Positions 5,108 through 52,639 of a stretch of DNA of 53,208 nt are shown piece after piece. Positions within the stretch are counted from its first letter, which is position 1. Each line of letters starts with the position of its first letter. The notes below the pieces were generated by a model. The model worked only from the letters and a program-made list of their open reading frames with translations. It was not told the DNA's origin and did not search any database. The position numbers and the translations under genes are program-made. The stretch lies in IMG/VR virus record IMGVR_UViG_3300011335_000433, positions 1 to 53,208 of that record; one strand, written 5' to 3'. Origin of the DNA: a virus (taxonomy: Duplodnaviria > Caudoviricetes).

Positions 5108-5886
5108 TTTTTGGCCTTGTCGAGTTGTTTTTGGAGCTTCTTGCATTCTTTGACCAACTCATTCTTTTCCCTCATGAGGGCGTCGATCCGAAGTTGCATC
5201 TGGGCGTTGAGGAAATTCAACCGCTCGATTTCTGCGTGCTGTTGGGCCATCTTGTCATCGGCCTCGAGGAAGCGATGCATAGCCTCAATGTCAGCGGCCA
5301 GGGCCATGTCGTTGGCCTTCAGTTCATCGGCATCGGGGGCAAAGTCGTCTTCAGGCTTTGTAAGTTCCGTGTCAGCCCTGGTTAAACCAGGGTCTTCGGC
5401 CTCGGTTTCAAGCTTCTTTTTGAAATGGCGCTCAATCTTTTCTACTTGTTTGGCTTTGGCCTCTGGGCTACGGACAGCGGCCACAAAGGTGCTGGACACG
5501 GCACAAAGCTTGGCAATTTTTTCGTTGCTCAGGTCTTTAGTGTCCTCATGGATCAAAGCCGCTTCGACCACCCGGCGCTTAGTGGCGTTGTTGCGTTGCA
5601 AACCATGTCTCCCATTGACGCCCATGGCGATCACCTGGGCCTCACGCTGAGTACCGGGCTTGTACTCCACATCAACCATCTTTGCGCCAAGTGCCATGTA
5701 GGCAAAGTAGCGGTGAAACCCATCAACCAGCCAATGGGTTGACCCATCAAACACGGTTTCCATAGAAGGAAACTCATCACCATCGCGCATTGCCTCAACA
5801 TATTCACGCACAACATCTTGGTTAATCTGATCGCGGTACTGTGTACCACCATCAATCCGGATGTATTCCAATTTTACTTTTTTCAT
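5104..5886 (-). CDS. ParB/Srx-like N-terminal domain protein with HTH and coiled coil
   Basis: LVDGFHRYFA ParB-like motif; LSNEKIAKLCAVSSTFVAAVR HTH; AAGGAG RBS. Confidence 0.8.
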   Translation of the reverse strand: MKKVKLEYIRIDGGTQYRDQINQDVVREYVEAMRDGDEFPSMETVFDGSTHWLVDGFHRYFAYMALGAKMVDVEYKPGTQREAQVIAMGVNGRHGLQRNNATKRRVVEAALIHEDTKDLSNEKIAKLCAVSSTFVAAVRSPEAKAKQVEKIERHFKKKLETEAEDPGLTRADTELTKPEDDFAPDADELKANDMALAADIEAMHRFLEADDKMAQQHAEIERLNFLNAQMQLRIDALMREKNELVKECKKLQKQLDKAKK

Positions 5887-5915
5887 TTTCACTCCTTAAA
5901 CACTCAACATTGAGT

Positions 5916-6116
5916 TCATGCGAAAAGATCCGGGCGCAGGTGCTTGCGCGTGACCTTGCCCTTCGTTGCCTTTTCAATCCGTTTGGCCAACTCAGCGGAG
6001 CAATTGCGTCTACCACTGATCAGCAGGCCCATCCAAGTCGGCGTGATGCCCAGTCGAGCGGCCAACTCTTGCTTGGCACCTCGCGGTTCATCATCAAAGT
6101 ATTTTTTTAGATTCAT
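5916..6116 (-). CDS. Cro/YdaS-like HTH regulator
   Basis: ELAARLGIT...ISGRR...IEKATKGKVTRKHLRPD pattern; first gene after the divergent promoter. Confidence 0.85.
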   Translation of the reverse strand: MNLKKYFDDEPRGAKQELAARLGITPTWMGLLISGRRNCSAELAKRIEKATKGKVTRKHLRPDLFA

Positions 6117-6144
6117 TTGTTGCTCTCTAACATGGGGTTTGAAA

Positions 6145-6181
6145 AAACTATAACACATTTTCAAATTCCGTGTTATAGTTT
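6145..6181. promoter_or_regulatory. back-to-back divergent promoters formed by a 12-bp inverted repeat
   Basis: AAACTATAACAC-13 nt-GTGTTATAGTTT; each arm reads TG-T-TATAGT (extended -10) on its own strand. Confidence 0.7.
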
Positions 6182-6236
6182 GCCTACGGTCACAAGACCG
6201 GGTTTGTCCGACATGGACGTTTTTTCAGGAGTTGAT

Positions 6237-6878
6237 ATGAGTTTTATTGTTGAAGACAAGGGCGGTGATTTTGAACGCTGTCCATCCGGTATGCATCTTG
6301 GTCGGTGTTACCGAATAATCGACTTGGGTACCCAGAAGTCAGAGTATATGGGGCAGGTCAAATACCTCCACAAAGTGATGCTCGGCTGGGAGCTTCACGG
6401 CACAAACGATGCCGGTGAGCCCCTCAAGATGAAAGACGGTCGCCCGTTTGGTATCTTCAAGAACTACACCTTGTCGTGGTCGGAAAAAGCCAACCTTCGG
6501 CTTGACCTTCAATCATGGCGTGGCAAGCAATTCTCGCAAGAGGAAATGCGCCGCTTTGACTTGAAGACAGTGCTGGGTGTGTGGTGCATGCTCAACATCA
6601 TCGACCGTGTGGGCAACGATGGCAAAACCTACACCAACGTCAATGGCCTCACGCCAGTGCCCTCGGTGATCAAGCAAGCTGGTTTGCCTGCGCCAGTGAA
6701 CAAAAACGAGTTGTTCAACATCGGTGACCCCGATATGGCCATGTTTGAAACTTTCAGCGAAAACCTGAAGAAGAAGATTTCATCGTCACCGGAATGGCAA
6801 AAGCGGAACGCACCACAAAACAGTGCGCCTGAGTCTGCCGCCCCATATGACGATATGGACGATTCAATTCCTTTCTGA
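6237..6878 (+). CDS. single-stranded DNA-binding protein (phage type)
   Basis: Acidic C-terminal tail DDMDDSIPF; CAGGAG RBS; adjacent to an exonuclease. Confidence 0.75.
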   Translation: MSFIVEDKGGDFERCPSGMHLGRCYRIIDLGTQKSEYMGQVKYLHKVMLGWELHGTNDAGEPLKMKDGRPFGIFKNYTLSWSEKANLRLDLQSWRGKQFSQEEMRRFDLKTVLGVWCMLNIIDRVGNDGKTYTNVNGLTPVPSVIKQAGLPAPVNKNELFNIGDPDMAMFETFSENLKKKISSSPEWQKRNAPQNSAPESAAPYDDMDDSIPF

Positions 6879-6888
6879 TGGAGGCAAC

Positions 6889-7245
6889 ATGGACGTAAAG
6901 CAACAAGCCCTCGAAAAAGTCATCAAGATGCTCGACAACATCGGTGTTGAATTCGCTGTGATCGACTTTGATGGAAAGAAACACGGGAACCTTGAGGTGA
7001 CCCCACCCAAGCCCGAACGCACCCGCACAAAGTATGACGAACCACACGGAGAGGTCACTAAATATGTCCGGGGTTACATCGGTGAAATGAAGCCCGGTGA
7101 TGTGGTTGAGGTACCCGCAAAGTACGGACGAAGACGAACCCAATCAGCCCTGTCTGGGTATGCGTGTCGGATCTTTGGAAACGGCAACACCGTCACCTCG
7201 TACAACACCACCAAAGACGCCCTTGAAATCATGCGCATTTTGTAA
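6889..7245 (+). CDS. hypothetical protein
   Basis: GGAGG RBS before ATG 6889. Confidence 0.75.
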   Translation: MDVKQQALEKVIKMLDNIGVEFAVIDFDGKKHGNLEVTPPKPERTRTKYDEPHGEVTKYVRGYIGEMKPGDVVEVPAKYGRRRTQSALSGYACRIFGNGNTVTSYNTTKDALEIMRIL

Positions 7246-7253
7246 GGAAACAC

Positions 7254-8048
7254 ATGACCACAATCATCGCAAGATCGGCTGAATCCGTTCACTGGTATCG
7301 CCAGGACGGTGGGCCGCAGTACACGGTCAAGGCCAAAGATGGCTCAGACCGCTCTACGACCCTCAGGGACGCACGAAAGATGAACTTGGTACCTTCGGTC
7401 ACCACGGTCATGAAAATCGCCGCAAAGCCCGGTTTGGAGGCTTGGAAGCTGGAGCAAATGCTCCTTGCCGCCCTGACCCTGCCCAGGCTTCCCCAGGAAC
7501 CCGAAAAGTCCTTCATCGCTCGAGTGGTGGCCGACTCCAAGGAATCCGCAAAGATGGCCGCTGAACGGGGGACTCGCATCCATGAGTCCATCGAAAAGCA
7601 CTATCGGGGGGAGCCCAACGAGCACAGCGCCATCTCCAAAGCCTTTGAGGAAAAGATCTTCGACCACTTCAAGACCCACCCCAACCAAAAGTGGGAAACC
7701 GAAGTGTCGTTTGCTCACCCCATGGGCTTTGGCGGCAAGGTGGACTTGTTTACCCGGCCAGATGAATCCGCACCCAACGGGATCATGCTGGACGCCAAAT
7801 CAAAGGAATTCGGGCCCGACGATGATGTGGTCGCTTATGACGAACACCTCATGCAACTTGCGGCATACCGCAATGGCGTGGATATGCCCCATGCACGGTG
7901 CGCAAACGTGTTTGTGTCCGTCACCCACCCCGGCTTGATCAGAGTCTACGAATGGTCAGAGGAGGAGCTTCAAAAGGGCTGGAATATGTTCCAGGCTTTG
8001 CTCACCTACTGGAAACTGAAAAACAATTTTGGAGAAATCGATGGATAG
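7254..8048 (+). CDS. PD-(D/E)xK exonuclease (lambda-exo/RecB-like)
   Basis: PSVTT, RGTRIH, GGKVDL, LDAKS and QLAAY motifs. Confidence 0.85.
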   Translation: MTTIIARSAESVHWYRQDGGPQYTVKAKDGSDRSTTLRDARKMNLVPSVTTVMKIAAKPGLEAWKLEQMLLAALTLPRLPQEPEKSFIARVVADSKESAKMAAERGTRIHESIEKHYRGEPNEHSAISKAFEEKIFDHFKTHPNQKWETEVSFAHPMGFGGKVDLFTRPDESAPNGIMLDAKSKEFGPDDDVVAYDEHLMQLAAYRNGVDMPHARCANVFVSVTHPGLIRVYEWSEEELQKGWNMFQALLTYWKLKNNFGEIDG

Positions 8049-8265: not shown

Positions 8266-8274
8266 GGAAACAGC

Positions 8275-12820: not shown

Positions 12821-15424
12821 TTAACCTTTCACCATCTTGAGGTAGTCAAGAGGAGATTTCGACTTTGGGGGGATTTTAGATGTAGGAGCCGATCTTTTGT
12901 GCGCTCGGATTTCCTCTCTCATTGCATCAAGCATTTGCGCACCTTTTTTGTTGTCGCCGCCACCCAGTGCAGTCACCATGGGTTCAGGGAAGACATATTC
13001 ACCGTCAGCGATCTTGGCGGGGACGGCGTTGCCACCCTCTTTGTACTCATGGGGCACTTGCTTTTGGAAGTCAGCCAAGGTCAAGGCACCGGCTTTGCTC
13101 GAGCCGTCCCCCAACGCCGCCACGGTGTCGGCGTCCATCACATAGTCCCCATCATGGAGCATTGCTGGGATGTCATCGGACTGCCCAGTACCCCTCCCAT
13201 TGGCGTAGAACCCGGTCAAACCGGTGATGAATTCAGGGTTGTGACCCTTGGGTGCCGCCTTGGCATATTTGTCTGGCAAACCGCCTTTGGCGTGTCCGGT
13301 TAAACCGGGCCTCAATTGGGGAAGCTTGGCAGGTTCGGTAGAAGTGGCTTTGCGTGAACCCATGGACAAAAACGGGTTTTTGCTTTCAGCAAACTTGGGC
13401 AAAGACTTGTCCAATTCAGATGAAAACTGGGATAAAACACTGCTCACAGAAGATCCCTGAGAGTATTCCTGAGGGGCAATACCTCGATCAGCCAGCACGT
13501 TCATCAGTGTGGGGTCTACGTTGTCGTAAAGCTGTTTCAACGGCTGGAATGGGTTCATGACAGATGGTGCTTTTTTGGTTTCCAGCATTTGGGGCTTGGT
13601 GTCCAACCATGGAATACCGGTTTGAGTGGTTTGTTGGGTCGCAGGCAAGCCACCAGTTTGTGTGGTTGTGGTGGTTGCAGGCGTCTTGGTCGGCGGTGTA
13701 ACTGGCAATGGTGAGGTCGGCGTTTTGGTGATTGGCGTAGTGGTTATATCTCCGCCATCATCATCAGCCGGTGGCTCTAACTCATTGTCCAGAATAGGCT
13801 CTGTTGGGAGCGTGCTTGGCGGCTCAAGCTCATCATCAAGAATTGGCTCTGTTGGAAGAGTGCTCGGTGGTTCAAGCTCATTGTCCAAAATTGGCTCTGT
13901 TGGCAGAGCGCCAATTGGCTCTTGTGCTTTTTCATCCAGTCTATTTTGCTCATCAATGGCCGCTTGCCTTGCGGCGGCTTCTGCATCTAGCCTGTTTTGC
14001 TCTGCAATTGCGGCCTGTCGCGCTGATGTTTCAGCATCCAATCTATTCTGCTCTGCAATCGCCGCTTGTCGTGCAGACGCCTCAGCATCAGCTTTGTTTT
14101 GCGCATCAATTTCAGCCTGCCGCGCAGAATCCTGAGCGGCTGTAGTTTTCATGTATTGATCAAAACTTTGATTCAGTTCATCTTGGTTTTGTACATACGC
14201 AAAGTTGTTCAACTCTTCTGGTGTTGCGTCCCGACCATAAGTTGATTGAAACTTGGTGTTTGCATCCATGCTATTTTTGATGGCCTGCAAACCAGAGGTG
14301 GTGGCCGCAAGCAAAGCGGCTTTGCTTGGATCTTTACCACTCAACTCAGCACGCAAAGTGGCGTTGAAAACCTTTTGGACGCTTGGGGGAAGCTGTGAAA
14401 AACCGTCAATCTTCCCCATGATCGTGCCGACAGCGCCACCAACCCCGCCATTGACAAATGCCGCAAGCGGATCACCTCCGGTTAAACCGGCGACAACAGC
14501 ATTTCCTGCCGCACTGCCAACGATGCTGTTGGCAACAGCACCCATGTCCACGGCACTGCCCAAAGCTCCACCCACATAGTCGGCAACATACGGCGCGGCC
14601 ATGATGGTGCCAATGGTGGTTGCGGCTTTGTTCCAGTCCCCAGTGTAGGTTGCCTCGCCAGCGGCCCTGGACATTGTGTATATCGCGCCCGTGCCTGGGC
14701 CAGCAAACACATCCAACAATATGGGAGTCAGTGGGCCAAGTTCTTTCAATGCGCCTCGGGCCATATCAGCAAATGGCCCTTGGTACTTGTAGTAGGCGTA
14801 TTGACCCAATCCACCCATACGGCCATCAGCCGCAGTTATCCAATCCTGCTGAACCCGCTCACCCCCTGGGGCTAGTTTTGGCTGGGTAATGTATGAAATT
14901 GGTGACCCGACCTGCATACTTGGATGAGGATTCCCAAGGCCAAGGATGGGTGGATTGTTGGCGTCAACTTTGTACCCGTTTGCGTTCTGAAGACCAAGCT
15001 TGTTGTAGTCATCAACTGACCACACATACCCGTTATTGTTGATGACGCTTTGCATACCCTGAGGAAGGGTGTACTGCACAGCATTTTTATAAGTGGCAGG
15101 GTCAAGGAACTGCTTGTTGTAAAGCTGAATATCACCGGAAACTGTGCCCTTTTTGACATAGTCATCAGGTACAAACATGTACTCTTTGCCATCAGCACCC
15201 TTGATGTTTGCATACCTTCCATCAGTGCTGTAATAGTTCCAAGTTGGTTGACCAATGTTGGAGGTTGGCAGTTCTGAGTTGAGGTACTTGGCGCTTTCAG
15301 CCGCCTTTTGCTCTGGTGTTCTTTTGTCTGTGGATGACGCAACTGCGGGAGTTTCTGGTTGCGGCAATGATTTGCTTTGCGCCAGAGGAGCTAATTGTCC
15401 AAAAATTGCTTGTAGATTACCCAT
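12821..15424 (-). CDS. large internal virion protein with repeats and C-terminal tandem G[DE]YV domains
   Basis: 867 aa; Gly/Ala-rich hydrophobic middle; C-terminus GTGQSDDIPAMLHDGDYV...IADGEYV. Confidence 0.65.
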   Translation of the reverse strand: MGNLQAIFGQLAPLAQSKSLPQPETPAVASSTDKRTPEQKAAESAKYLNSELPTSNIGQPTWNYYSTDGRYANIKGADGKEYMFVPDDYVKKGTVSGDIQLYNKQFLDPATYKNAVQYTLPQGMQSVINNNGYVWSVDDYNKLGLQNANGYKVDANNPPILGLGNPHPSMQVGSPISYITQPKLAPGGERVQQDWITAADGRMGGLGQYAYYKYQGPFADMARGALKELGPLTPILLDVFAGPGTGAIYTMSRAAGEATYTGDWNKAATTIGTIMAAPYVADYVGGALGSAVDMGAVANSIVGSAAGNAVVAGLTGGDPLAAFVNGGVGGAVGTIMGKIDGFSQLPPSVQKVFNATLRAELSGKDPSKAALLAATTSGLQAIKNSMDANTKFQSTYGRDATPEELNNFAYVQNQDELNQSFDQYMKTTAAQDSARQAEIDAQNKADAEASARQAAIAEQNRLDAETSARQAAIAEQNRLDAEAAARQAAIDEQNRLDEKAQEPIGALPTEPILDNELEPPSTLPTEPILDDELEPPSTLPTEPILDNELEPPADDDGGDITTTPITKTPTSPLPVTPPTKTPATTTTTQTGGLPATQQTTQTGIPWLDTKPQMLETKKAPSVMNPFQPLKQLYDNVDPTLMNVLADRGIAPQEYSQGSSVSSVLSQFSSELDKSLPKFAESKNPFLSMGSRKATSTEPAKLPQLRPGLTGHAKGGLPDKYAKAAPKGHNPEFITGLTGFYANGRGTGQSDDIPAMLHDGDYVMDADTVAALGDGSSKAGALTLADFQKQVPHEYKEGGNAVPAKIADGEYVFPEPMVTALGGGDNKKGAQMLDAMREEIRAHKRSAPTSKIPPKSKSPLDYLKMVKG
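13770..13906 (-). repeat. three tandem 48-bp coding repeats (LPTEPILD[ND]ELEPP)
   Basis: Directly visible in DNA and protein. Confidence 0.9.
13933..14130 (-). repeat. four tandem 51-bp coding repeats (ARQAAIAEQNRLDAExx)
   Basis: Directly visible in the translation. Confidence 0.85.
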
Positions 15425-18065: not shown

Positions 18066-19286
18066 TTAAAACGCCCCGCCAAGGACGCCAGCAGGCACCA
18101 AAAGCCCGGTGGTTGTAAAGGTGGCCGCGTTGACCCCGGCGACAGCAATTGCAAATTGACTGCTTGCCGGTAGGTATAAGCCGGTGGAAGCGTCACCCAC
18201 AAAAGACAGTGACGGGTTTGGTGCAGAACCGTTGCCGATGGTCAATGCATTGATGAAGCTCGATGTTGAACTTTGGGCGTTGTAGACGTTGGTGCCATCG
18301 CAAATCGCAATGATCGTTTGACCCTGGGGCAGAATGATGCTCGAGGCCCCCATGGAGCCCGTTTTAAAGGTCAGCGTGAACGCCCCTGTGGTGTTGTTTT
18401 GCAAGCTGTAAAGCTGAACCGTAGGTGGCAGGATCACGTCACAGTTGGAGGTCAGGACGCCTTGATACTCCTGTATGATGCTTGACGCCTCAGCAGAGGT
18501 CAATGTCACCGTCCCGCCAGTGACGTTTTTGGTCAACTGGGTGAAGAAAAACGTGGCCGACCTGCCGTAGGCATAGCTGAAGTAATTGGTGCCGTTGGAG
18601 GCCACCACAAACGACTCGTCAATTTGGAGTTGTGCGCTGGCATTTCCGTCAATGGTGTTGGCCCCATTTGTGGCAATGTTCAGGATGCCGGTGCCATCGT
18701 TTTTGACGATCACATACCAGCTTGCACCGACAGCCGAAGCGGCTGGCAGTGTCAAAGTTCCTGCGCCACTTGACCACACATACATCGAAGCTCGGTCATC
18801 GGGCAAAAATGTGTAATTGGAATAAGACAGCGTCACGGGCACACTGCTGTTCAACGTGGTGTTGATTGCGGTTAAACCGAACCCGGCCAAGGTGGCGGCA
18901 TTTGCCTGCGACACACCGGCACCAAAGGTCACCGATGCCCACACCCCGTTTTGTGTGGAATTGTTGGTCAGGTAAATGTATTGAGCAATTCCCGATGCAA
19001 CGCTGACCACAGTGGCCAATGCAGGATTGGTCACCGTGAATGCGAAGGTTCCGGTGTTCCTGATCAACACCGATTGTCCGGTGGATACTTCTGTTGCCGA
19101 TGGAAGAATAAGCTTCAAACTGCCAACGGTGGCCGACACATCAATGATGTTGGCCACAACACTTGAGGTGTTGCCGTTGACTGGCCACTGCAAGGTGGTA
19201 TTGGCGGATATGGTCAGGCTCTCATAGCCCACCTGGGATGGGCTGATGGTCTGGCCCGTGTATGGATTCGTGTAGCTTATGGTCAT
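18066..19286 (-). CDS. tail protein
   Basis: Thr/Ser-rich beta protein ending GGAF. Confidence 0.65.
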   Translation of the reverse strand: MTISYTNPYTGQTISPSQVGYESLTISANTTLQWPVNGNTSSVVANIIDVSATVGSLKLILPSATEVSTGQSVLIRNTGTFAFTVTNPALATVVSVASGIAQYIYLTNNSTQNGVWASVTFGAGVSQANAATLAGFGLTAINTTLNSSVPVTLSYSNYTFLPDDRASMYVWSSGAGTLTLPAASAVGASWYVIVKNDGTGILNIATNGANTIDGNASAQLQIDESFVVASNGTNYFSYAYGRSATFFFTQLTKNVTGGTVTLTSAEASSIIQEYQGVLTSNCDVILPPTVQLYSLQNNTTGAFTLTFKTGSMGASSIILPQGQTIIAICDGTNVYNAQSSTSSFINALTIGNGSAPNPSLSFVGDASTGLYLPASSQFAIAVAGVNAATFTTTGLLVPAGVLGGAF

Positions 19287-26495: not shown

Positions 26496-28826
26496 TCAGA
26501 ATGCGCCGCCCGACACACCACCAGTAATCTGGCCTGTTGACGGGTTGCAGGTTATCGACGAGTTTACCAATTGCCCAAGATTTCCGGTAGTGGCTGACAC
26601 GAATGTCAGATAGTTGGTGGCATTGGTTGAATTGGCGGTGATCGCCGTGTTTGTTGCATTGGTTGCGTTTGTGGCCGTCCCAGTCAAAGATGCAGTGATC
26701 GTCCCGGCAGTGAAGTCGCCCAATGCGTCCCTGGCAACAATTGCACTGGCCGTGTTGGCGCTGGTCGCTGTGGTGGCGCTGTTGGAAACCTTCCCCGCAG
26801 TGGCTATGGTCGCCAAGTAAGTGTCGGTGATCGCCGTGGCATTCCAAGTTCCCGCCGTCAACGTCCCAACCCCAGTGATCCCGGTGTATGAGCCTGTGAT
26901 GTAGGCAGAGCCCACAGTCCCAGAGGTGATCTGGTTGCCATTGATTGCAATCGCTGTGGTCGCCGCCAAAGTCAATTGGCCCTGGGCGTTGACAGTGAAT
27001 GTTCCCACCGATGACGCCGAGCCATAAGCACCAGCAGTCACCGCTGTGTTGGTGATGCTGAACTGCGTTCCCGTCAGGGTCAGGCCAGTGCCAGCGGTGT
27101 ATGCGCCAGATCCTGAGAACTGAACCCATGTCACCGGGCTTGTGCCGACAACAGTCACCGGGTCGGTCTGAACCCAGCCAGTGCTTGCGTACAAAGTGCC
27201 GTTGGAGACAAAGGTGAAGTCCCCGCTTGCCATCTCGACAGCGGTGTCAAAGTCGGTTGCTCGGGTGAGAACCGTGCCGCCAGTCGCCCAGGTGTAGATG
27301 CCGTTGTTGGCCTGTGTGGCTTCGTTCTTCACGAGCACACGGTCACCATTGAGTAGCGTATACCCATCCAAAACGGTCAGGGCCACCGACAAGGTCAAGG
27401 TCGCCCCAACGCCAGCCGTGCCGTTGTTGTAGGTCACCGTGCCGCCAGTGATTGATGCAAGCGTTCCGGGGGTTGCCGCCGCACAAGCCGCATGGACATG
27501 AAGGCCCTCGGCCACCGCATCCACATACTGCTTGGTCGCCAAATCCAGGGCGGCGGTCGGGTCTTGGGTGACTGTGACGGTGGTCAGCCCACCCAGGGTC
27601 AAGCTTGAGCTTCCCAAGCTGATGGCGGTGGTTCCAACGGTCAGCGACGAGTTGGTCAAAGAGGCGTTGCCAATGTTGGTCAGGGTGTTGGTTGACCCGC
27701 TGATCGACTTGTTGGTCAGGGTCTGTGACCCGGTCAACGTGGCAACAGTCGAGTCAATTGCAATGGTGACGGGGGCAGAGCCGTTATAGCTCGTGCCCGT
27801 CAGGCCGGTGCCTATGGTCAAGGCATTTGTGGCCGTGGCTGTGACAGTTACAGAGCCACCCAAGCTCACCGATGAGCCGTTTATCGTGATGGCACTGTTG
27901 GCCAACTGAGCGTTTGTAACCGTCCCAGACAAGGCGGTTGTGGGGATTGTGGTCGAGGCCGTCATAGCCCCCGCGCCGTTGCCATACACATATCCGGTTA
28001 AACCGGATGTTCCCGTGCCGCCACTTGATGTGTTTAAAGTGCCAGCCAGCGTCACCACGCCCGTGGTATTGGTGCTGGGAGTGAACCCGGTGCTTCCCGC
28101 GCTAAATGAGGTCACGCCACCGGTCAGGCTGAATTGATTCCACCCGGTGCTTGTGTACCCCTCAAACTGCTGAAGTGTGGTGTTGTAGCGCACGGTGCCA
28201 AGGTAGGTGACGCGCTGACCGGTGGTGCCGTTGGGCAGGGTAATGCCACCGTTGCCGGGGATGATGGGGTTGCTGGCCAAGCCAACCGTCACGTTTCCTG
28301 ATCCATCGCCATTGGTCACGCTGGTTTGGTCGGTCGTGCCCAGAATGTTGATCTTTGCCGGTAATCCCGACTGGAGAGCCAAGATCCCGGTGCCGGTCTG
28401 CGACACCAAGTTGCTCAGGAACGTGCCAAGGCTGATTGTGGGGTCGCCAGCAACTCCATCGCCATTGGCAATGGTGAGGCCTGCATTAACCGCCAAAGTG
28501 CGCCCTGTGAGCGTATTTGAGCCCGTCTTGACCTGTATGCCGGTGGGACTGCTGTTTAAAGACAGCGCCGCGCCGGTCAAATTGATTTGAAGGGTTGATC
28601 CTGCGCCGTTATCAGTGAGTGACAAACCGCTACCTGCGGCAATTTGCCTTGCATTGGTCAGCCCAACGGTCGATCCAACCGTTAAAAACGGGTAGTTCAA
28701 CGCACCAGCACCAGCCATGGCCGCAGTGGTGGTTTGAACGGTCACCCCGTTTTGAACAATAGGTACCGCCTCAGTCCCGGTCAATGCTTGGGCCTGGGGT
28801 AGCTGGGTGATGGTTATCTGTGCCAT
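26496..28826 (-). CDS. long tail fibre protein
   Basis: 776 aa, Thr/Gly-rich; ATKQYVD, DRVLVKNE...NGIY...LTRATD and QTLTNK modules. Confidence 0.8.
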   Translation of the reverse strand: MAQITITQLPQAQALTGTEAVPIVQNGVTVQTTTAAMAGAGALNYPFLTVGSTVGLTNARQIAAGSGLSLTDNGAGSTLQINLTGAALSLNSSPTGIQVKTGSNTLTGRTLAVNAGLTIANGDGVAGDPTISLGTFLSNLVSQTGTGILALQSGLPAKINILGTTDQTSVTNGDGSGNVTVGLASNPIIPGNGGITLPNGTTGQRVTYLGTVRYNTTLQQFEGYTSTGWNQFSLTGGVTSFSAGSTGFTPSTNTTGVVTLAGTLNTSSGGTGTSGLTGYVYGNGAGAMTASTTIPTTALSGTVTNAQLANSAITINGSSVSLGGSVTVTATATNALTIGTGLTGTSYNGSAPVTIAIDSTVATLTGSQTLTNKSISGSTNTLTNIGNASLTNSSLTVGTTAISLGSSSLTLGGLTTVTVTQDPTAALDLATKQYVDAVAEGLHVHAACAAATPGTLASITGGTVTYNNGTAGVGATLTLSVALTVLDGYTLLNGDRVLVKNEATQANNGIYTWATGGTVLTRATDFDTAVEMASGDFTFVSNGTLYASTGWVQTDPVTVVGTSPVTWVQFSGSGAYTAGTGLTLTGTQFSITNTAVTAGAYGSASSVGTFTVNAQGQLTLAATTAIAINGNQITSGTVGSAYITGSYTGITGVGTLTAGTWNATAITDTYLATIATAGKVSNSATTATSANTASAIVARDALGDFTAGTITASLTGTATNATNATNTAITANSTNATNYLTFVSATTGNLGQLVNSSITCNPSTGQITGGVSGGAF

Positions 28827-29791: not shown

Positions 29792-30858
29792 CGTGTATAC
29801 ACCGAAATGTTTGGGGCGTAGTAGATCGGCGATCTGTCGCGGTTTTCGGCCTCAGCCATTTGGAAATACTTTTCGGCTTGGCCTTCCAGATACTGAATTC
29901 TGGCCAATTCAACCTTGGGCAGGAGCAATCCCATCTGATGGGCCAGCATCATCTGGATGGCCTGATAGAAGTATTGGGGCAGTTCCAGTTCGCCATTGAG
30001 GTCGCCAATGTCCATCACTTGCCGGGAATACCAAATGGTCATCTGGTAAAACGGATCTGATGGTGTTGGCCACAAAGTGATTTTGGCCTGAGGCAAAGTT
30101 CGGTTGAACCAGTACTGATATGGCTGGTTGGCCGTAAAATTTTTGTTGGGCAAATTGGTGTAGTCGTCGCGGTTTAACCGCGCCATGGTGACTTCGGTGG
30201 AGTTGTTGCCCACATAAAACTCAGCCACGTTCAGGGTGCCGCCGCCAGTTTCGCGCATGCGGTAGTACTGGACGGTCACACCTGGATCGATGTCGTACCA
30301 CAACCAAGTGCCAGACACCCAAGTGGTCACACCGGTATCTTCCAGCAAATTCCAGGTGATCCCATCCCGCGACCATTCCAAAAGAATGTGGAACGATCCA
30401 GAGGTGGCAGGCAGGATACCAATGGAGCCTGCATAGATCGAGTTGTTGGCACCGTAGTTGATGCCAATGTTTCCGTTGGGTGCGGTTTGAGCATCCGAGG
30501 TCAGCACATCACTGTCAAAGGCCAGACCGGCATTGCCAGATGACGCAAAGTATGAGCCACCAGTGGCAGGAGTTGGCCGCTCCATGCGGCGATACAGGGC
30601 GTTGAGCACGTCATTGCCACCCACGGGTAGCAAATACTCGTACTGATCCATGTTCAAGCCATAGACCTTCTTTTCAATTGCCCAGTAATTGATGCCCTGA
30701 TTGATCAGGTTGCTGAGGATGAAGAAGAGGGCTTGCTTTGAAGCTTGAACCTGTTCAACGGTCAGTTCTTCGGCCAGTTTTCCCGCTTGACGAGCACCCT
30801 GGTCGATGAATTGCTGTACCGAAACGACAGTTTGGCCAACGGTTCCGCTGTATGCCAT
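29788..30858 (-). CDS. head closure / head-tail connector protein
   Basis: N-terminal helical part and LWPTP motif typical of adaptors, with a central beta insert. Confidence 0.65.
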   Translation of the reverse strand: MAYSGTVGQTVVSVQQFIDQGARQAGKLAEELTVEQVQASKQALFFILSNLINQGINYWAIEKKVYGLNMDQYEYLLPVGGNDVLNALYRRMERPTPATGGSYFASSGNAGLAFDSDVLTSDAQTAPNGNIGINYGANNSIYAGSIGILPATSGSFHILLEWSRDGITWNLLEDTGVTTWVSGTWLWYDIDPGVTVQYYRMRETGGGTLNVAEFYVGNNSTEVTMARLNRDDYTNLPNKNFTANQPYQYWFNRTLPQAKITLWPTPSDPFYQMTIWYSRQVMDIGDLNGELELPQYFYQAIQMMLAHQMGLLLPKVELARIQYLEGQAEKYFQMAEAENRDRSPIYYAPNISVYTR

Positions 30859-34078: not shown

Positions 34079-34086
34079 CGCAAGGT

Positions 34087-37177: not shown

Positions 37178-37633
37178 TTAAACGTAAGCTTTGAAGCTCA
37201 AAGGATCATCCGTCACCTTGGCGATCAGTTCGTGATCGTTCAAAGTCATGAATAACACCGGATCTTCACCCTCTTCACCCGTAACCTCGCGCTCCCAGCG
37301 GTCGCCACCCCATTTGGGGACGCGCACGTAGTCGCCGATCTGCGCCCATGAGCCCTCGGGCCATGATTGCATGGTGTCACGGTTTTTGAATGCCAAGGGG
37401 CCTATGGCTACCACTCTGCCGATCATGTTGTTCCACTTTTCGTTCTCCTTGGTTTCCTCCACCAAGATGATCCGACCAGAGGTCTTACGTTTGATGCGGC
37501 GCAATTGAACAATCACACGTCCACCGTATGGTTCTTGCCCTGGTTTAACCAGGGGGAAGGCCCATTCAAGCTCGACTGGATCGCTCACACCCTCATTCCC
37601 ACTGATAGTGGGGATCTTTTCCTTTTCACTCAC
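37178..37633 (-). CDS. GroES-like co-chaperonin
   Basis: RVIV...KTSGRIIL...GRVVAIGP...IGDYV...LNDHELIAKV; GTG start after CAGGAG. Confidence 0.8.
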   Translation of the reverse strand: MSEKEKIPTISGNEGVSDPVELEWAFPLVKPGQEPYGGRVIVQLRRIKRKTSGRIILVEETKENEKWNNMIGRVVAIGPLAFKNRDTMQSWPEGSWAQIGDYVRVPKWGGDRWEREVTGEEGEDPVLFMTLNDHELIAKVTDDPLSFKAYV

Positions 37634-38046: not shown

Positions 38047-40510
38047 TTGGTACTCCTTGCGGTGGTTGCATTTCAGGTGCGGCGGGTGCCACGGGTTGTT
38101 CAGGCAGGGCCTGAGGTTGAGCCTGAGCCTGAATAGTCTCATGCGTCAATTTTGCATTTTCAATTGCAATCTTGGTCTGATTATCCAGCGCTGACTTCTG
38201 CACGTCAGCCTGCAATTTTGCCTGATCGTATTGGTTATCGGCCTGATCCTTTTGGGTCTTGCGCTGGGTTTCAGCCATGCTGGTTTCCTTGACCACTTGG
38301 GCATCAGGCGGCAGGGCCTGTTTGGCCGCTTGCTGGCGCTGTTGGGCCACTTGGATCAACTGCTGGAAGGCTTGGCCAAACTGCGAGAACACCTCTTGAG
38401 TGTCGAGCATGACGTGGGCACCAACGGTGGTGTACAGCTTGTCGATAGTTGGGGTCAGGGCCGGGTCGTCATAGTCCGTGATGGGCTTGCCACGGGCCTT
38501 GGTGACATACCCGTTGGAGCGGTTCAAGTACCACAAGGTCATGTGTTGCTTGATGTGCTCGATCAGGTTGTTCAGGAAGGCTGGATCTGCAAATGGGCTT
38601 TGGCCAAAGAACGGGTTCAAACCGAATTGCAAGTGGTCTTGGATGTGGGCAATGTGATCTTGCTGGAGGTAGGCGTATGAAGCCTGACCAATCAGCATGG
38701 CCGCATTCTCGTCTGCTGAGGTGCGCTGTTCGGGTGCTGGCACGTTCTTCATCAGTTCATTGATGTTGGGCACCTTCATCTGCTTGAGCACCCGGCTCAA
38801 CACGCTTGGCATGTTGAATTGATCGGGGTGCTTTTCAGCCAAGGACAACACAGCTTGGTTTTGGGCCATGCGCTGGGTTTCGCTGAAGATGTGCGGATCG
38901 GACACCGGCACCACGTCAGTGACTTTGGAAAAGTCATCGCGGGTGATCTGCAAATCAACGACCTCATCGGCCATCTTCATTTCATCGAAGTGCCACCGGT
39001 TTAACCGACACAGGATCTTCAAAACCCTGGCTTGGCTGGCATGCATCCGGGCATGGATGGCTGAGAACACCGCCGCCCCTTGCTCAATCAGGGCCTGGGT
39101 GGTGCCCACAGGGGCCTGTGCGCTTACGTCAGCGATCTTTTCCTCGCTGGTGGTCACTACCCCCTTAGCCGCCTTGTCCAAGAAGCCCAGAAGCTCCAAA
39201 AGCACCTGTGAGGGTGGGTTGAACGGCATGGGCATGGCAATCTGGCGGATGTCGTTCACGCCGGGTGCGCCCTCGATCTCCACAATCTGGGTGACTTCCA
39301 CCTGTTGGCTTTGGCCGCTGATCTTTGCGCCCTTGAGTTTCAACATGGTGGCGGCGTTGTTGATGTGCGCCGAGTCCAACAATGCACGCAGGGAGCCGGT
39401 CAGGGCCGCTGACAAGCCGCCGATCAGGTGGGGCAGGCCAATGGCATAGGCACCACGCCACGGGATGAATTTGAACTCCACCACCCAATCCAGCTTGGTC
39501 ATGGTTTCATCTTGCTCTTCCCAATTTCGATACAGGCCGACAACTTCGTTGTCCAACTCATCAATCATCAGGATGTACGGAGCCATCGTGCCCTTGGAGT
39601 ACTTGTCGTCATCAAGCTCCAGGTAGGTGTAGATGTGATAGACCTTGCGCAGGCCATCCTGGTTGTCCTCCATCTTTTTGCCTTCGATCTTGTCGTTGGC
39701 TTTTTGGGTCTTGGAGGGTTCAAATTCCATCGTCGCTTTGACGACGTTGATGTCACGGTACATCCCCATGCGGATGCGGCGCTGGAACTGCTGGGCGGTG
39801 ATCTCGTGAACTTCAGCCGCACGCTGGGCGGTGTAGAAGTTGGTGGCCGCAAAGGGCAGGATCACCCGGTCGATGGGCAGGAACTCCACGCATGGGCGCT
39901 TCTTCTCCTCGTCAAACCACAGCTTGAAGTATTGCGACCCGCCCAATGGCAGTTGGGTCAGCATTTGCTCTTGCTCGTCGCGGAACTCCTCGATCTGCTC
40001 AGTGATCTGCCAATTCAAGTAGTCGCGCTTGCGCTCGGCAGTGGCCGTCTTCATGTCGTCCATCTTGCCCAGGATCTTGGTCTTCACCGGGCCATCGGGC
40101 GGAAACAACTCTTTGATTGCACGGGCGGCAAAGTCCACACAGCCCTCGGCCATGACGGGGTGAACCACTTTTGACGCACCCATGAAGGTTGCGCCACCGG
40201 GAGCGTCATTGCCCATGCCGGTGCGGCGGATGCCCTCTTCATACTGCTTGTCACGCAGTTCACGGGCCTGCTTGTCGGTTTCCAGCAGGTCGATGTACTC
40301 CATGGCCAACGAGCTTAGGGTGCCGTTGTTGATTGAGTCAGCGAGGTTGGAATAGAAGTCCGGGTTCATCTCCGGGCCGTCATCGGGCATTGTGATGATT
40401 GCTGAACCGTCAGGCTGTTCCTCTGACTGGATCTCAGGCAAATCAATCAGCGCACTGCCGTCAGCTTGTTCGCTGATGCCCATTTCGTCGATGTTTTCTT
40501 CGTCCATCAT
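38033..40510 (-). CDS. portal protein (P22-like)
   Basis: 825 aa; HPVMAE, ELFPPDGPVK, LPLGGSQYFK and APVGTTQAL motifs; Gln-rich C-terminal barrel. Confidence 0.88.
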   Translation of the reverse strand: MMDEENIDEMGISEQADGSALIDLPEIQSEEQPDGSAIITMPDDGPEMNPDFYSNLADSINNGTLSSLAMEYIDLLETDKQARELRDKQYEEGIRRTGMGNDAPGGATFMGASKVVHPVMAEGCVDFAARAIKELFPPDGPVKTKILGKMDDMKTATAERKRDYLNWQITEQIEEFRDEQEQMLTQLPLGGSQYFKLWFDEEKKRPCVEFLPIDRVILPFAATNFYTAQRAAEVHEITAQQFQRRIRMGMYRDINVVKATMEFEPSKTQKANDKIEGKKMEDNQDGLRKVYHIYTYLELDDDKYSKGTMAPYILMIDELDNEVVGLYRNWEEQDETMTKLDWVVEFKFIPWRGAYAIGLPHLIGGLSAALTGSLRALLDSAHINNAATMLKLKGAKISGQSQQVEVTQIVEIEGAPGVNDIRQIAMPMPFNPPSQVLLELLGFLDKAAKGVVTTSEEKIADVSAQAPVGTTQALIEQGAAVFSAIHARMHASQARVLKILCRLNRWHFDEMKMADEVVDLQITRDDFSKVTDVVPVSDPHIFSETQRMAQNQAVLSLAEKHPDQFNMPSVLSRVLKQMKVPNINELMKNVPAPEQRTSADENAAMLIGQASYAYLQQDHIAHIQDHLQFGLNPFFGQSPFADPAFLNNLIEHIKQHMTLWYLNRSNGYVTKARGKPITDYDDPALTPTIDKLYTTVGAHVMLDTQEVFSQFGQAFQQLIQVAQQRQQAAKQALPPDAQVVKETSMAETQRKTQKDQADNQYDQAKLQADVQKSALDNQTKIAIENAKLTHETIQAQAQPQALPEQPVAPAAPEMQPPQGVPNVNQ

Positions 40511-46364: not shown

Positions 46365-46397
46365 GATGCTCCTTTTGCGGTTTAACCGCGACTGTAT

Positions 46398-48593: not shown

Positions 48594-48896
48594 TCATTCT
48601 GCTTCGCTCCTCAGGATGCGGTGCTCGGCGAACTTCCTGTACACCTTGAGTTCTGCGTTTTCCTTCTTCAGGCGCTCGATCTCCGACTGCATGTGGCTCA
48701 TGCGGCTCATGGCTTGGTCAATCCAGTTGCTGACCTCCACCGGCATGCTGAACTTCTGTGTGGGCATGGTGACCTTGATTGGGCGTGCCATGACCTTCAT
48801 TTCTGGTTTAACCAGGGTTTTGGGTTTGGCCACCCCTGGTTTAACCAGGGTTTTCTTTGCCGGAGTTTTTTTGGCCGGGGCCTTTTTTGTTGCCAT
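48594..48896 (-). CDS. protein with histone-like KKAPAKK N-terminus and coiled coil
   Basis: MATKKAPAKKTPAKK; AGGA RBS. Confidence 0.7.
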   Translation of the reverse strand: MATKKAPAKKTPAKKTLVKPGVAKPKTLVKPEMKVMARPIKVTMPTQKFSMPVEVSNWIDQAMSRMSHMQSEIERLKKENAELKVYRKFAEHRILRSEAE

Positions 48897-48903
48897 GATG
48901 ATC

Positions 48904-49709: not shown

Positions 49710-49803
49710 TTGGAATCTCCGGTTAAACCTGCTTGTTGCAGTGATTGAACTGTAACACGGAGTTAGAGCTTCCCAAACTATTTTGATAGGTGCTTTCCCT
49801 AAT
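49707..49803 (-). promoter_or_regulatory. early promoter/leader cassette A
   Basis: TAGGGAAAGCACCTA box, CGTGTTACAGTT, CACTGCAA..AAGCAGGTTTAAC, GGAG..TCCAAATG; repeated at 51455-51563. Confidence 0.7.
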
Positions 49804-49817
49804 GTTGTATTTATGCA

Positions 49818-51079: not shown

Positions 51080-51095
51080 AGTGTTCTCCTGATGA

Positions 51096-51109
51096 GGGGC
51101 CGAAGCCCC
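51096..51109 (-). repeat. C(UUCG)G hairpin, cassette B end
   Basis: ATCAACC-GGGGCTTCGGCCCC-TCA. Confidence 0.75.
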
Positions 51110-51115
51110 GGTTGA

Positions 51116-51457
51116 TTAAGCGGTGGTGGTGACTTTGATCACGGCGCTGGACTCGCCACGGAACTTCTTATTGAAGTCCTCGTCTGTGAGGTCTTTGAAT
51201 TGCTCTGTTGAGCGCAATGCGGCAATGATTGCATCTGCGTCCAAAGAACCAATGCGGTTTTCGATGGTCACACGCACACCGTATTTCTCACCACGGTGCT
51301 TGCCTTCGCCCAAGGTGTTGGCGATGCCGTCCTTGAGAACCTTGGTTTGAGCGGTCAGATTTTTGATCTGACGGTCGAGCACCGCGAGGGTGTCGATGTT
51401 GTTGGTCAGGGACTCGACAGTTGCGAGGGCTTGGATGGTTGCTTGAACTTCAGTCAT
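51116..51457 (-). CDS. early hypothetical protein
   Basis: 113 aa; first gene after promoter cassette B. Confidence 0.75.
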   Translation of the reverse strand: MTEVQATIQALATVESLTNNIDTLAVLDRQIKNLTAQTKVLKDGIANTLGEGKHRGEKYGVRVTIENRIGSLDADAIIAALRSTEQFKDLTDEDFNKKFRGESSAVIKVTTTA

Positions 51458-51563
51458 TTGGAACTCCTTAGTTAAACCTGCTTCGTTTGCAGTGAATGAA
51501 CTGTAACACGAAGTTTGAGGAAAAACCGGGCTGATCCAATTATTTACTAGGGACTTACCCTAA
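51455..51563 (-). promoter_or_regulatory. early promoter/leader cassette B
   Basis: TAGGGTAAGTCCCTA box, CGTGTTACAGTT, CACTGCAA...AAGCAGGTTTAAC, GGAGTTCCAAATG. Confidence 0.7.
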
Positions 51564-51579
51564 TATGATTTCAGCGAAG

Positions 51580-51849
51580 TTAATACTTGGGTTTCTCGTT
51601 TAAGCGTTTTATGGTCACATTGAGGGCGTCATGCTCATCCATCTTTGCGATGGCCCAGGCCCTTTTTTGGCCGTGCCAGCCCATCATGCTTCCCTGGTGA
51701 CATGACTTGCACAGGGCCACGCATGTGTACTGGCAGGACTGTTTGATGTGGTGTGCGTCAGAGGGGCCGGGGGCATCACACACCGAACAGGGCAATTCCT
51801 TGACCCGTCCGATGTATTCGCGCTCATCCGCGGTGAGCTTGTTGTTCAT
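51580..51849 (-). CDS. Ref/DUF968-like HNH Zn-binding protein
   Basis: LPCSVC...AHHI...LCKSCHQG. Confidence 0.7.
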   Translation of the reverse strand: MNNKLTADEREYIGRVKELPCSVCDAPGPSDAHHIKQSCQYTCVALCKSCHQGSMMGWHGQKRAWAIAKMDEHDALNVTIKRLNEKPKY

Positions 51850-52184
51850 GCCACCGCCTTGTCCATCACCCGGTTGGATGCCTCTGTGGAGCGCCAGCAG
51901 TCGATCCTGGCCTGGGCTGAGATCAACCCCCACCGATACCCTTCTTCGCGCTCTACAGCGGCTTTAAGGCCCTTCAGAAGCTCGATGTACTCAGGGTCAG
52001 CATACGCCTCTACCTCAGCCGCCGCCGCTGTCTTGGTGCCAGCCATCATGGCCGTGCGCATGAGCAAAGCCTTTTTGCTTTTGCGGAACTCCTCAATGTG
52101 TACCCGCTCGGCCTTTGCCTCGGCGTATTTCTGCCCGTGGGTGTACAGGTAGTCCACCGCGGCGTTGATGTCCTTCTGGTTCAT
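51846..52184 (-). CDS. helical hypothetical protein (recombination region)
   Basis: AEVEAYADPEY...WRSTEASNR pattern; ATGA coupling. Confidence 0.7.
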   Translation of the reverse strand: MNQKDINAAVDYLYTHGQKYAEAKAERVHIEEFRKSKKALLMRTAMMAGTKTAAAAEVEAYADPEYIELLKGLKAAVEREEGYRWGLISAQARIDCWRSTEASNRVMDKAVA

Positions 52185-52639
52185 TTGTCTGTCTTTCCAT
52201 ATTTTGCAATGAGTGCGGCATCGGCCAGTGCTTGGCCCTTGCCTTTTTTGTCCAGGTCGCGCCAGTGCGGCCAGATCTGAATGGCTTTGGATCGAGCTTC
52301 GTCCTTGTCCTTGAGGGTCAATCCAGCCCTTTTTTTCCATGACTGAGGGGTCACCATGGTCACGGGTATTTCAAGGGCTCCCAGGACGCCTGAAACGCTC
52401 CCGCAGGCATGGCCAAAGGTGTACATGCTGGTCACCCCCTGCCCAGGTCTTGCGCCGGTCAATTCCATGAATGCCTCGGTTAAACCGCACTGCTTGATCC
52501 AACTGGCCAGAGCGGCACAGTTGACCCGGTTGTGGGAGCCCACGGCGTAGGTGGGCATTTCCATCCATTCGATGGGCTGGTCGTCTTCCAGCATTACCAA
52601 TGCCCCGGTTAAACCGGGATCGATGCCAAGTATTCTCAT
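52181..52639 (-). CDS. RuvC-like Holliday junction resolvase
   Basis: ILGIDPG, FME, VTPQSWKK, ADAALIA. Confidence 0.85.
   Translation of the reverse strand: MRILGIDPGLTGALVMLEDDQPIEWMEMPTYAVGSHNRVNCAALASWIKQCGLTEAFMELTGARPGQGVTSMYTFGHACGSVSGVLGALEIPVTMVTPQSWKKRAGLTLKDKDEARSKAIQIWPHWRDLDKKGKGQALADAALIAKYGKTDK

Follow-up and report, generated by a model that had tools for sequence, protein, structure and literature searches.

GGTTWAACC, a nine-base palindrome with an ambiguous centre (W, A or T), occurs 14 times in a 53,208-bp viral record of IMG/VR, IMGVR_UViG_3300011335_000433, which belongs to a tailed phage and which we analyzed at its full length (referred to here as the window). We propose that GGTTWAACC is the cognate recognition site of an orphan ParB-fold protein that the phage itself encodes at positions 5104-5892, and we assign this reading a probability of roughly 0.72. 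We infer the pairing because the palindrome in the DNA for the protein's linker predicts the one dispersed over the same genome, because residues of the protein covary with bases of the site, and because the protein is modeled with a ParB-type fold, a helix-turn-helix, and a dimer. The original prediction made from the window had named this ParB-like protein or a host nucleoid factor as the reader of the palindrome; the comparative data favor the protein, and a nucleoid factor is not needed, although it may have additional roles.

Enrichment of the palindrome and codon choice

A pattern search located 14 exact copies of GGTTWAACC, starting at positions 5380, 13298, 14480, 18870, 27996, 30171, 37542, 38998, 46379, 48805, 48838, 49721, 52478, and 52607, exactly where the original prediction had placed them. 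Chance had been estimated to give about 0.4 copies; in 100 dinucleotide-preserving shuffles, the mean was 0.29 and the maximum was 2, and none of the 100 reached 14. The most frequent 9-mer of the window was GGTTAAACC, and Markov models of order 1 to 4 predicted 0.13 to 0.48 copies per orientation against the 8 and 6 observed.

Twelve of the copies are coding and read as GLT (seven), RLN (two), or VKP (three), the same count and registers as first described; those at 46379 and 49721 are intergenic. We therefore ran codon-aware nulls, 500 shuffles each, over 47,754 of the 53,208 bases. This area held 10 sites within called genes, while the 4 sites outside it were kept fixed (2 of these, 52478 and 52607, are also coding, in a RuvC-like gene). 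Synonymous shuffling within genes recreated a mean of 0.76 (maximum, 4) of the 10 shuffled coding sites and shuffling by codon position recreated 0.23, so the excess persists under the codon-preserving test that had been suggested with the prediction. TTA makes up 4.8% of the leucine codons in the window, yet 9 of its 58 occurrences fall in motif copies. Likewise, 7 of the 23 GLT tripeptides are spelled GGTTTAACC, compared to about 0.15 predicted from codon usage. This codon usage points to selection acting on the DNA, in agreement with the earlier view that symmetry of the DNA and not the protein sequence is what is kept.

The symmetry extends beyond the core. Complementary bases were found at ±5 in 13 of the 14 copies, at ±6 in 11, and at ±7 and ±8 in 7 each; the copy at 49721 consists of the 9-bp core alone, and the 13 extended copies are as many as had been claimed. 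Along the plus strand, the central letter runs as five A, six T, and three A, and we considered this run as a polarity signal for replication or transcription. We rejected this idea, as the letter is fixed by the reading register because the other letter would yield a TAA stop (GGT TAA in register 0 and GTT TAA in register 2), and stop-codon avoidance thus explains the run.

Each lineage carries its own palindrome

Relatives of the window were gathered as 76 loci by portal-protein similarity. For the ParB-like protein, a single-protein scan of viral contigs returned 2 loci and an alignment-based scan returned 80, while about 590 homologues were found at the protein level. GGTTWAACC itself is scarce in these relatives: 74 of the 76 portal-based loci hold 0 to 2 copies, and only the two closest, L005 (5 copies) and L052 (3 copies), are enriched. 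Among whole records, the close relative G001 has 13 copies, and G003, G004, and G005 (88 to 100% complete) have 1 or 2. We had regarded this scarcity as an argument against a family-wide system but dropped it, since other lineages carry other cores.

These other cores became visible in the alignment of the ParB-like homologues, which contains a variable linker with short repeated peptides. The linker peptide is GLT in the lineage of the window and VESDST, TSQTS, NTNQIS, TPVKLD, ESSSTG, and others elsewhere. The DNA that encodes the linker holds perfect odd palindromes of 11 to 23 bp, one to three per gene and of seven core types, and an odd palindrome with arms of at least 5 was present in 47 of the 54 loci examined. 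By lineage, these palindromes are GGTTNAACC, AGTCNGACT, AATCNGATT, AATTNAATT, GATTNAATC, AGTTNAACT, and GATCNGATC, and they share the centre T-(T/C)-N-(A/G)-A.

The palindrome of the linker is also the palindrome of the genome. AGTCNGACT occurs 4 to 8 times in the 6 records in which it is cognate and 0 to 2 times in 18 others. In most of 17 complete or near-complete genomes, the cognate core ranked at or near the top among the 256 possible odd cores (4+N+4). In 11 of 15 genomes, the palindrome of the linker held one of the first four ranks among odd palindromes elsewhere. We also applied a blind rule, in which we took the longest odd palindrome in the ParB-like gene and determined where its core ranked among the 256 when only the DNA beyond this gene was counted. 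For 15 genomes, this gave ranks of 1, 31, 1, 129, 46, 1, 12, 3, 3, 1, 1, 3, 4, 2, and 22 (Fisher P = 1.7e-10). The original prediction had asked for the motif to be compared with ParB-like orthologues across relatives, and the outcome agrees with the proposed link: where the ParB-like gene has diverged, GGTTWAACC is lacking and the lineage has its own motif instead. Copies within one genome usually share a long identical palindrome, such as GTGGAGTCSGACTCCAC (eight copies in G008) and CGCGATTSAATCGCG (eight copies in G011).

Other palindromes were seen in the same material. More distant ParB-like homologues (L150, L157, L158, L162, L167, L169, L171, and L172) contain in their linker DNA a second palindrome class that has an AAC(N)GTT centre; its members, for example TCACTGTCAACGGTTGACAGTGA and CTATCTGGCAACGGTTGCCAGATAG, are longer than those of the first class. 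CAACNGTTG is frequent in G005, G016, G017, and G019. ACCANTGGT is among the top odd palindromes (5 to 10 copies) in G004, G006, G007, G015, G016, G019, and others, whatever the linker core, and its abundance could reflect either coding bias or a second shared site.

Cognate copies recur at conserved places

We placed the cognate copies of each genome on window coordinates by translated search. They recur in the ParB linker, past the terminase stop, and at ~51590, ~48800, ~34061, and ~30175. The place past the terminase holds the lineage's own palindrome in 12 of 17 genomes, of which G006, G008, G014, and G016 have two palindromes there, those of G016 being of different sequence. At ~51550-51592, six other lineages have their own palindrome, and the window carries a copy with one mismatch at 51470. 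In 13 genomes, 30 of 89 cognate copies were intergenic compared to 7.3 expected from the coding fraction; this count uses crude gene calls, and 4 of the 30 (in the window and G001) really lie inside the RuvC-like gene. The intergenic sites are found 10 to 140 bp before the next start codon.

The clearest coding case is the invariant peptide MARLNRDD. The window, G001, G003, and G011 write it with CGCGGTTAAACCGCG, CTCGGTTAAACCGAG, GTCGGTTGAACCGAC, and GCGCGATTGAATCGCG, respectively, each of which is the cognate palindrome of that genome and differs from the others in synonymous codons only; three different cognate palindromes are thereby represented. In 13 other genomes, the codons of this peptide form no palindrome. 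This implies that coding copies arise through codon choice and not through insertion.

It also bears on another possibility, in which the copies are small mobile or duplicated elements of no use to the phage, seeded through insertion or gene conversion by a master copy that lies in the ParB linker. The linker does show duplications, with a 15-bp tandem in G001 and two or three tandem copies in several lineages, and the long identical palindromes shared within single genomes would be expected from copying. However, the coding copies come without indels, through codon changes that are synonymous or conservative within conserved peptides, and their places are conserved across lineages even though their sequences differ. 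In addition, two genomes with ~90% identity have 10 of the 12 alignable sites in common. We consider such spreading very improbable.

The location of the linker copy suggests a stronger alternative, namely, that the same protein and site are a replication initiator and its origin. The linker sites would then start replication and load the neighboring helicase and primase, and the dispersed copies would provide secondary points of loading or have some other task. One to three tandem palindromes do lie in the DNA for the disordered linker in most lineages, and the ParB-like gene lies immediately upstream of the helicase gene (3578-5146, minus strand), with which it overlaps, and the primase gene (2703-3716, minus strand) comes next. 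In lambdoid phages, initiator-origin specificity diversifies fast. On the other hand, 4 to 14 further copies are found at conserved positions distant from the replication module (past the terminase and before capsid-region genes), and we know of no initiator with a ParB fold. Also, no AT-rich block adjoins the linker site (G+C of 0.42 to 0.58 around 5340-5460), which counts against the initiator and against our preferred reading alike. We regard an initiator as a serious but unlikely explanation.

Residues of the ParB-like protein covary with bases of the palindrome

We compared 63 distinct homologues, using the linker copy of the palindrome for each. Residue 135, which comes second in the predicted recognition helix, corresponds to the bases at ±3/±4 in 40 of 41 proteins. 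Proline is present in 19 of the 20 proteins with AA-cores (AATC and AATT), and the lone exception has a linker that holds both kinds of palindrome. Serine or threonine is present in all 21 proteins with AG-cores (AGTC and AGTT). The GATC core goes with histidine (two proteins), the GATT core with lysine (two proteins), and the GGTT core with threonine (seven proteins). The switch can also be seen between close lineages, with GTGGAATC and GTGGAGTC accompanying proline and threonine, respectively. On a maximum-likelihood tree for which the trait columns and the linker were left out, the trait of proline versus serine or threonine and the base A versus G at ±3 each change 11 times. Of six well-supported independent pairs, about 5.9 went the same way and none went the opposite way (sign test P = 0.031).

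A second position behaves similarly. Residue 153 is lysine or arginine with C at ±1 and valine, isoleucine, methionine, or leucine with T in 51 of 52 proteins; of 6 independent pairs, 5 agreed in direction and none ran counter (P = 0.0625). The close lineages with TACTAATT and TACTAGTT differ in this manner (lysine or arginine versus valine or isoleucine). Residue 157 varies like residue 153. The chemistry plausibly fits, with lysine or arginine facing guanine and aliphatic side chains facing the thymine methyl group.

This covariation argues against the motif being the target of a DNA methyltransferase or of restriction-modification, whether encoded by phage or host, or a host word, such as an uptake sequence or nucleoid-factor site, copied by the phage. 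A short palindrome with an ambiguous centre does resemble many restriction sites. However, the motif changes together with the reading residues of the ParB-like protein within one phage family, and sites of the restriction type are usually avoided by phages rather than enriched. Moreover, searches for the methyltransferase families PF01555, PF00145, and PF02086 found none in five genomes, and a full-text search for the motif listed only primers and unrelated uses. This explanation seems to us far-fetched.

Fold and predicted dimer of the ParB-like protein

The gene at 5104..5892 (minus strand) is an open reading frame of 262 residues that matches PHROG 1033, "ParB-like partition protein," with an E value of 5e-16. 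An AF2 model of the protein had a mean pLDDT score of 80. It comprises an N-terminal domain of the ParB/Srx (sulfiredoxin) type, a helix-turn-helix, a helix at residues 143 to 165, a linker at residues 164 to 184, and a long C-terminal helix at residues 188 to 261. The helix-turn-helix covers residues 123 to 141 (codons at 5470..5526, minus strand), with modeled helices at 123 to 130 and 134 to 141, and S134 and T135 open the recognition helix. The linker (codons at 5341..5403, minus strand) is predicted to be disordered, with pLDDT below 50, and its codons contain the palindrome of the gene. Foldseek matched the model to ParB, Noc, PadC, KorB (8qa8 and 8qa9), and sulfiredoxin, with E values of 2e-7 to 1e-3 and with Noc and ParB at the top. 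A profile search of PDB sequences returned only Srx (E = 7e-4) and Myxococcus xanthus ParB (E = 8e-3).

GxxRxxA is the definition of Box II, the nucleotide-pocket motif of ParB proteins. The protein retains it as G58-F-H-R61-Y-F-A64, which aligns with G-A-R-R-W-R-A of M. xanthus ParB, and G58, F59, H60, R61, and Y62 do not vary among 37 homologues. The protein was also predicted to form a homodimer, with a score of 0.50 compared to 0.00 for the best control. The runs agreed in at least 59% of contacts with a partner pLDDT of at least 66. A score of 0.50 was attained by 20 of 30 solved homodimers and by 1 of 23 monomers. The predicted interface is a parallel coiled coil of residues 211 to 261.

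A classical partition system was considered and rejected on the basis of its missing partner. With one ParA model (PF13614), no ParA was found in any of five genomes, four of them at least 90% complete, while the control was positive in 14 of 14 genomes. The motif [LFI]G[KR]G[LFI], defined as the N-terminal ParA-binding motif in the accessible part of PMC12704722, does not occur in the window protein. In the same five genomes, no tyrosine integrase (PF00589) and no signs of plasmid maintenance were found.

Flank symmetry and further points against the pairing

Several observations weigh against the proposed pairing, among them the flanks of the sites. In the window, the two flanks within a site are more alike than flanks between sites (33 matched positions compared to 13.96; P = 5e-5), which exceeds a shared half-site preference; in G001, the effect is seen at ±6 only (P = 0.015). 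Between the window and G001, flanks have also changed on both sides at once with complementarity kept: CGCGG..CCGCG to CTCGG..CCGAG at 30171, CTGG..CCAG to CCGG..CCGG at 37542, and CTGG..CCAG to GCGG..CCGC at 48805, while the ±5 pair at 5380 is T:A in the window and C:G in G001. Symmetry and two-sided change of this kind are not foreseen if each half-site is read independently, and they hint at self-pairing or at copying between sites.

Self-pairing would mean that the palindromes act as hairpins in single-stranded DNA, cruciforms, or RNA stem-loops, for example, as priming or processing signals, and are read by their shape and conserved tip. Besides the flanks, the perfect palindromes of 17 to 23 bp in other lineages would fit this explanation. 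Against it, a centre of one base cannot form a loop, self-complementarity at 49721 is limited to 9 bases, and some lineages use even palindromes, while the covariation of helix-turn-helix residues with bases fits read-out of duplex DNA. At the first unpaired position in the two genomes, G:T pairs outnumber A:C pairs by 10 to 5, which is not decisive. No U-runs follow the sites on the sense (minus) strand, and we rejected intrinsic terminators or RNA hairpins as there is no sense-strand T-run and terminator-like calls were made only on the T-rich antisense strand. GC-rich UUCG hairpins moreover form a class of their own in this phage, with four copies of GGGGCTTCGGCCCC. We consider self-pairing improbable. 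Possible causes of the flank symmetry are selection for self-pairing, copying between sites, or an ongoing shift in the preferred base at ±5. The last is suggested by residue 134, which is serine in the window and aspartate in G001 and L094, and by the four sites with T:A at ±5 in the window, all of which have C:G in G001.

Other points concern the comparative evidence for reading by the ParB-like protein. The blind rule failed or was weak in G001 (where another palindrome was picked), G004, G005, G007, and G019; the ParB-like proteins of G004 and G005 are only ~30% identical. In G016 and G020, the gene has no odd palindrome, and even palindromes occur elsewhere in the genome. In G020, the even palindrome TACTAATTAATTAGTA is repeated three times in tandem at 30003-30097, outside the ParB-like gene, and is followed by GTATTAATTAATTAATAC; some lineages would therefore use half-sites without a central base. 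Both sign tests are small. The palindrome tested for covariation also resides in the same gene as the residues, and recombination of a cassette of helix-turn-helix plus linker could inflate the number of switches, although this would not explain why the dispersed copies match.

The assignment of the protein to ParB has its own weak spots. The window protein has no match to PF02195 at E ≤ 1 (3 of 37 homologues match, the best at E = 0.005), and TIGR00180 is unmatched, with NCBIfam giving SerK and PSTK weakly at E = 0.02, far below cutoffs. Since these thresholds are missed, we file the protein under the ParB/Srx fold and not as a canonical ParB.

The sites and their genes in the window

Nearly all genes of the window are on the minus strand, with a small island of plus-strand genes at 6117-8496. 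G001 is a 55,025-bp relative that is colinear with the window at ~85 to 98% nucleotide identity and circularly permuted with respect to it. The two ends of the window correspond to an unaligned stretch of ~2 kb in G001 (32578-34673), and G001 has a terminal overlap of 432 bp. As G001 is colinear and circularly permuted, the window appears to be near a whole genome, and the IMG/VR completeness estimate of 66% looks too low. Ten of the 12 alignable sites (of 14) are identical in G001, compared to 52.6% of all aligned 9-mers.

Site 1 (5380..5388), CCCTGGTTAAACCAGGG of 17 bp, encodes GLT in the ParB-like linker; it is conserved in G001 and tandemly duplicated there as the 15-bp copy. Two sites encode GLT in the tape-measure-like gene (12821-15424, minus): site 2 (13298..13306) is missing at the orthologous place in G001, and site 3 (14480..14488) is conserved. 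Site 4 (18870..18878), GLT in a tail-fibre-like gene, is conserved in G001, and other genomes encode GLT or GL(L/K/V) at this place with different codons. Site 5 (27996..28004), ATCCGGTTAAACCGGAT of 17 bp, encodes GLT in a structural gene of 776 residues; its peptide SGLTG is also present in G007, where it is written GGTTTGACA. Site 6 (30171..30179), CGCGGTTTAACCGCG, encodes RLN within MARLNRDD in gene 29788-30858. A copy with central G, GGTTGAACC, is found at 30102..30110 and is conserved in G001; whether it belongs to the site system is uncertain.

The capsid-like gene is at 34087-35001 (minus). Site 7 (37542..37550), CCCTGGTTTAACCAGGG, encodes VKP in a gene for a GroES-like co-chaperonin (37178-37669, minus; Pfam Cpn10, E = 7e-6; PHROG 3188) within the head-gene block, and G001 has CCCCGGTTTAACCGG there, changed on both sides. 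Site 8 (38998..39006) encodes RLN in the invariant peptide CRLNRW of the portal (38033-40510, minus), where only the window and G001 use TTA for leucine. Between the portal and the terminase (46398-47825, minus), a 497-residue protein (44594-46087, minus) carries an ART-PolyVal domain (Pfam E = 7e-9), the ADP-ribosyltransferase domain of polyvalent phage proteins. Site 9 (46379..46387) is intergenic, ~10 bp past the terminase stop and directly before the next gene's ribosome-binding site.

Sites 10 (48805..48813) and 11 (48838..48846) both encode VKP in a lysine- and proline-rich gene (48594-48941). G001 has GCGGTTTAACCGC at site 10; site 11, again CCCTGGTTTAACCAGGG, lies in the repeated peptide KTLVKP, and its core in G001 is mutated to GGTTTAACT. 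Site 12 (49721..49729) is the intergenic 9-bp core and overlaps the ribosome-binding-site region of gene 49329-49709. Its paralogue is the one-mismatch copy, GGTTTAACT on the minus strand, at 51470..51478 before the ribosome-binding site of gene 51116-51457. The regions upstream of these two small genes (49710-49830 and 51458-51580, minus) are paralogous over ~60 to 100 nt. Both contain CGTGTTACAGTTCA(T/A)TCACTGCAA, then AGCAGGTTTAAC(C/T), a ribosome-binding site, and TTCCAAATGA, and they look like duplicated promoter-operator-leader units.

The last two sites encode GLT in a gene for a RuvC-like Holliday-junction resolvase (52181-52639, minus; PHROG 1770, E = 1e-34) that the codon-score gene caller missed. 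Site 13 (52478..52486) is in the peptide QCGLTE, and site 14 (52607..52615), CCCGGTTAAACCGGG, covers codons 9 to 11 in the conserved N-terminal motif IDPGLTG. As for the UUCG hairpins, GGGGCTTCGGCCCC occurs on the minus (sense) strand at 32362-32375, 34065-34078, 49309-49322, and 51096-51109, where it would form a stem of GC pairs around a UUCG loop. All four copies are just 3' of a gene, the capsid-like gene included, and the hairpins are likely RNA-stabilizing or terminating elements of a class distinct from the palindromes.

Relation to known ParB systems

The closest parallel is KorB with its OB operators on the IncP plasmid RK2. Both are ParB-fold proteins with a helix-turn-helix and odd-length palindromes with an ambiguous centre. 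In both cases, many copies are spread over a replicon of ~55 to 60 kb, some far from promoters (12 OB sites in RK2, 14 copies here, and 4 to 11 cognate copies in relatives). The OB core is TTTAGCGGCTAAA in an oligonucleotide given in the accessible text of PMC11790492, which also describes KorB as loading at OB as a CTP-dependent sliding clamp that silences at a distance. However, KorB has a ParA homologue, IncC, as well as the clamp-locking KorA and TrbA, and it doubles as a partition protein, whereas there is no ParA here. Our replicon is also an apparently lytic tailed phage, two-thirds of the sites are inside genes, and specificity varies with lineage.

N15, a linear plasmid-prophage, offers a phage-borne ParB-family protein, SopB, with several inverted repeats, which are reportedly scattered over the phage genome. 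In contrast to the system described here, N15 has SopA and partitions as a plasmid prophage, while we found neither ParA nor integrase in five genomes. The SopB sites are IR1 to IR4 in the accessible part of PMC7205306.

Noc and its Noc-binding sites (NBS) share other features with our system, as an orphan ParB paralogue with changed helix-turn-helix residues reads a changed palindrome at dispersed sites. The specificity of ParB and Noc is said to have been switched experimentally through few residues, and Bacillus subtilis has a parS site within its own parB (spo0J) gene. Sequence similarity to ParB and Noc is nonetheless marginal, Box II is GFHRYFA here and GERRxRA there, and the sites here are 9 to 17 bp with a one-base centre. 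Lambda O with ori-lambda in gene O likewise has dyad sites in its own linker-coding DNA, adjoins replication genes, and occurs in specificity types that differ between related phages. Its fold is different, however, and here the gene contains just 1 of the 14 copies, with no AT-rich element for unwinding next to it.

According to the accessible part of the survey PMC12704722, phages and mobile elements widely carry orphan ParB-like proteins, which can bind CTP, ATP, or GTP, and almost none of the phage orphan ParB-fold proteins has a known DNA target or role. The phage ParBs associated with 5mYOX lack a DNA-binding domain, as described in the accessible part of bioRxiv 10.1101/2025.08.14.668559, unlike the protein here with its modeled DNA-binding domain. 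Neither of these sources, in the parts accessible, names an orphan phage ParB with dispersed cognate sites. Full-text searches, with subscription journals and supplements outside the scope, turned up no account of a phage site system of this kind. Taken together, the sequence comparisons support a ParB-like site system that is orphan and phage-borne and has palindromes private to each lineage, and the evidence for the ParB link is strong on the comparative side.

A model for site reading and its significance

In our model, the ParB-like protein would be a coiled-coil dimer in which each helix-turn-helix reads one half-site on double-stranded DNA. Residue 135 would read the bases at ±3/±4, and residue 153, possibly with residue 157, in the next helix would read the base at ±1. 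One copy of the site resides in the DNA of the protein's own linker, and the others are dispersed, partly in short intergenic gaps beside ribosome-binding sites and many within genes through codon choice. The family would have switched reading residues and sites together repeatedly, giving each lineage a private palindrome. We suggest more cautiously that the dimer may be loaded at its sites in the way of KorB, Noc, and ParB, with the conserved GxxRxxA nucleotide pocket as a switch, and that the loaded protein might then control or mark the whole phage chromosome.

As to function, our leading guess is KorB-like control of transcription units, followed by loading of an origin or replisome and then by self-marking or a protective coat. 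The intergenic copies at 46379 and 49721 and the near-copy at 51470 are directly before ribosome-binding sites, which fits an operator role; the latter two are in the paralogous regions upstream of small genes that end in UUCG hairpins. Promoters could not be placed with confidence, as a sigma-70 scan gave fewer matches than shuffles, and this is a further point against our main reading. A promoter-like element, GTGGAC or GTAGAC followed after ~18 nt by GGCATAAT, was seen downstream of the terminase in the window (~46114-46142, minus) and in nine relatives. GGCATAAT itself was rejected as a general promoter word, as it mostly occurs about once per genome (0 to 4 copies).

The palindromes are a candidate target for an orphan ParB-fold protein and a natural experiment, in which dozens of related uncultured phages changed the site and two residues together, and this yields testable rules for base reading by the ParB-type helix-turn-helix. 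A phage that selects DNA words inside its genes through codon choice is also a clear case of a second code over coding sequence. If a nucleotide-switched clamp is loaded at the sites, then long-range control of the KorB type would extend from plasmids to lytic phages, and if the protein is instead an initiator, it would represent a new origin-binding fold.

Lastly, and quite tentatively, the palindromes may serve as a fast-evolving system of genome identity, although we think this unlikely as it stands. Each lineage's word would be read by the matching protein, and only the DNA of kin would be loaded, coated, or licensed for replication, expression, or protection. If so, coinfecting relatives would be excluded, as with plasmid incompatibility groups, and the parallel switches would be a natural code of protein-DNA recognition that could be transplanted to retarget ParB-type clamps.

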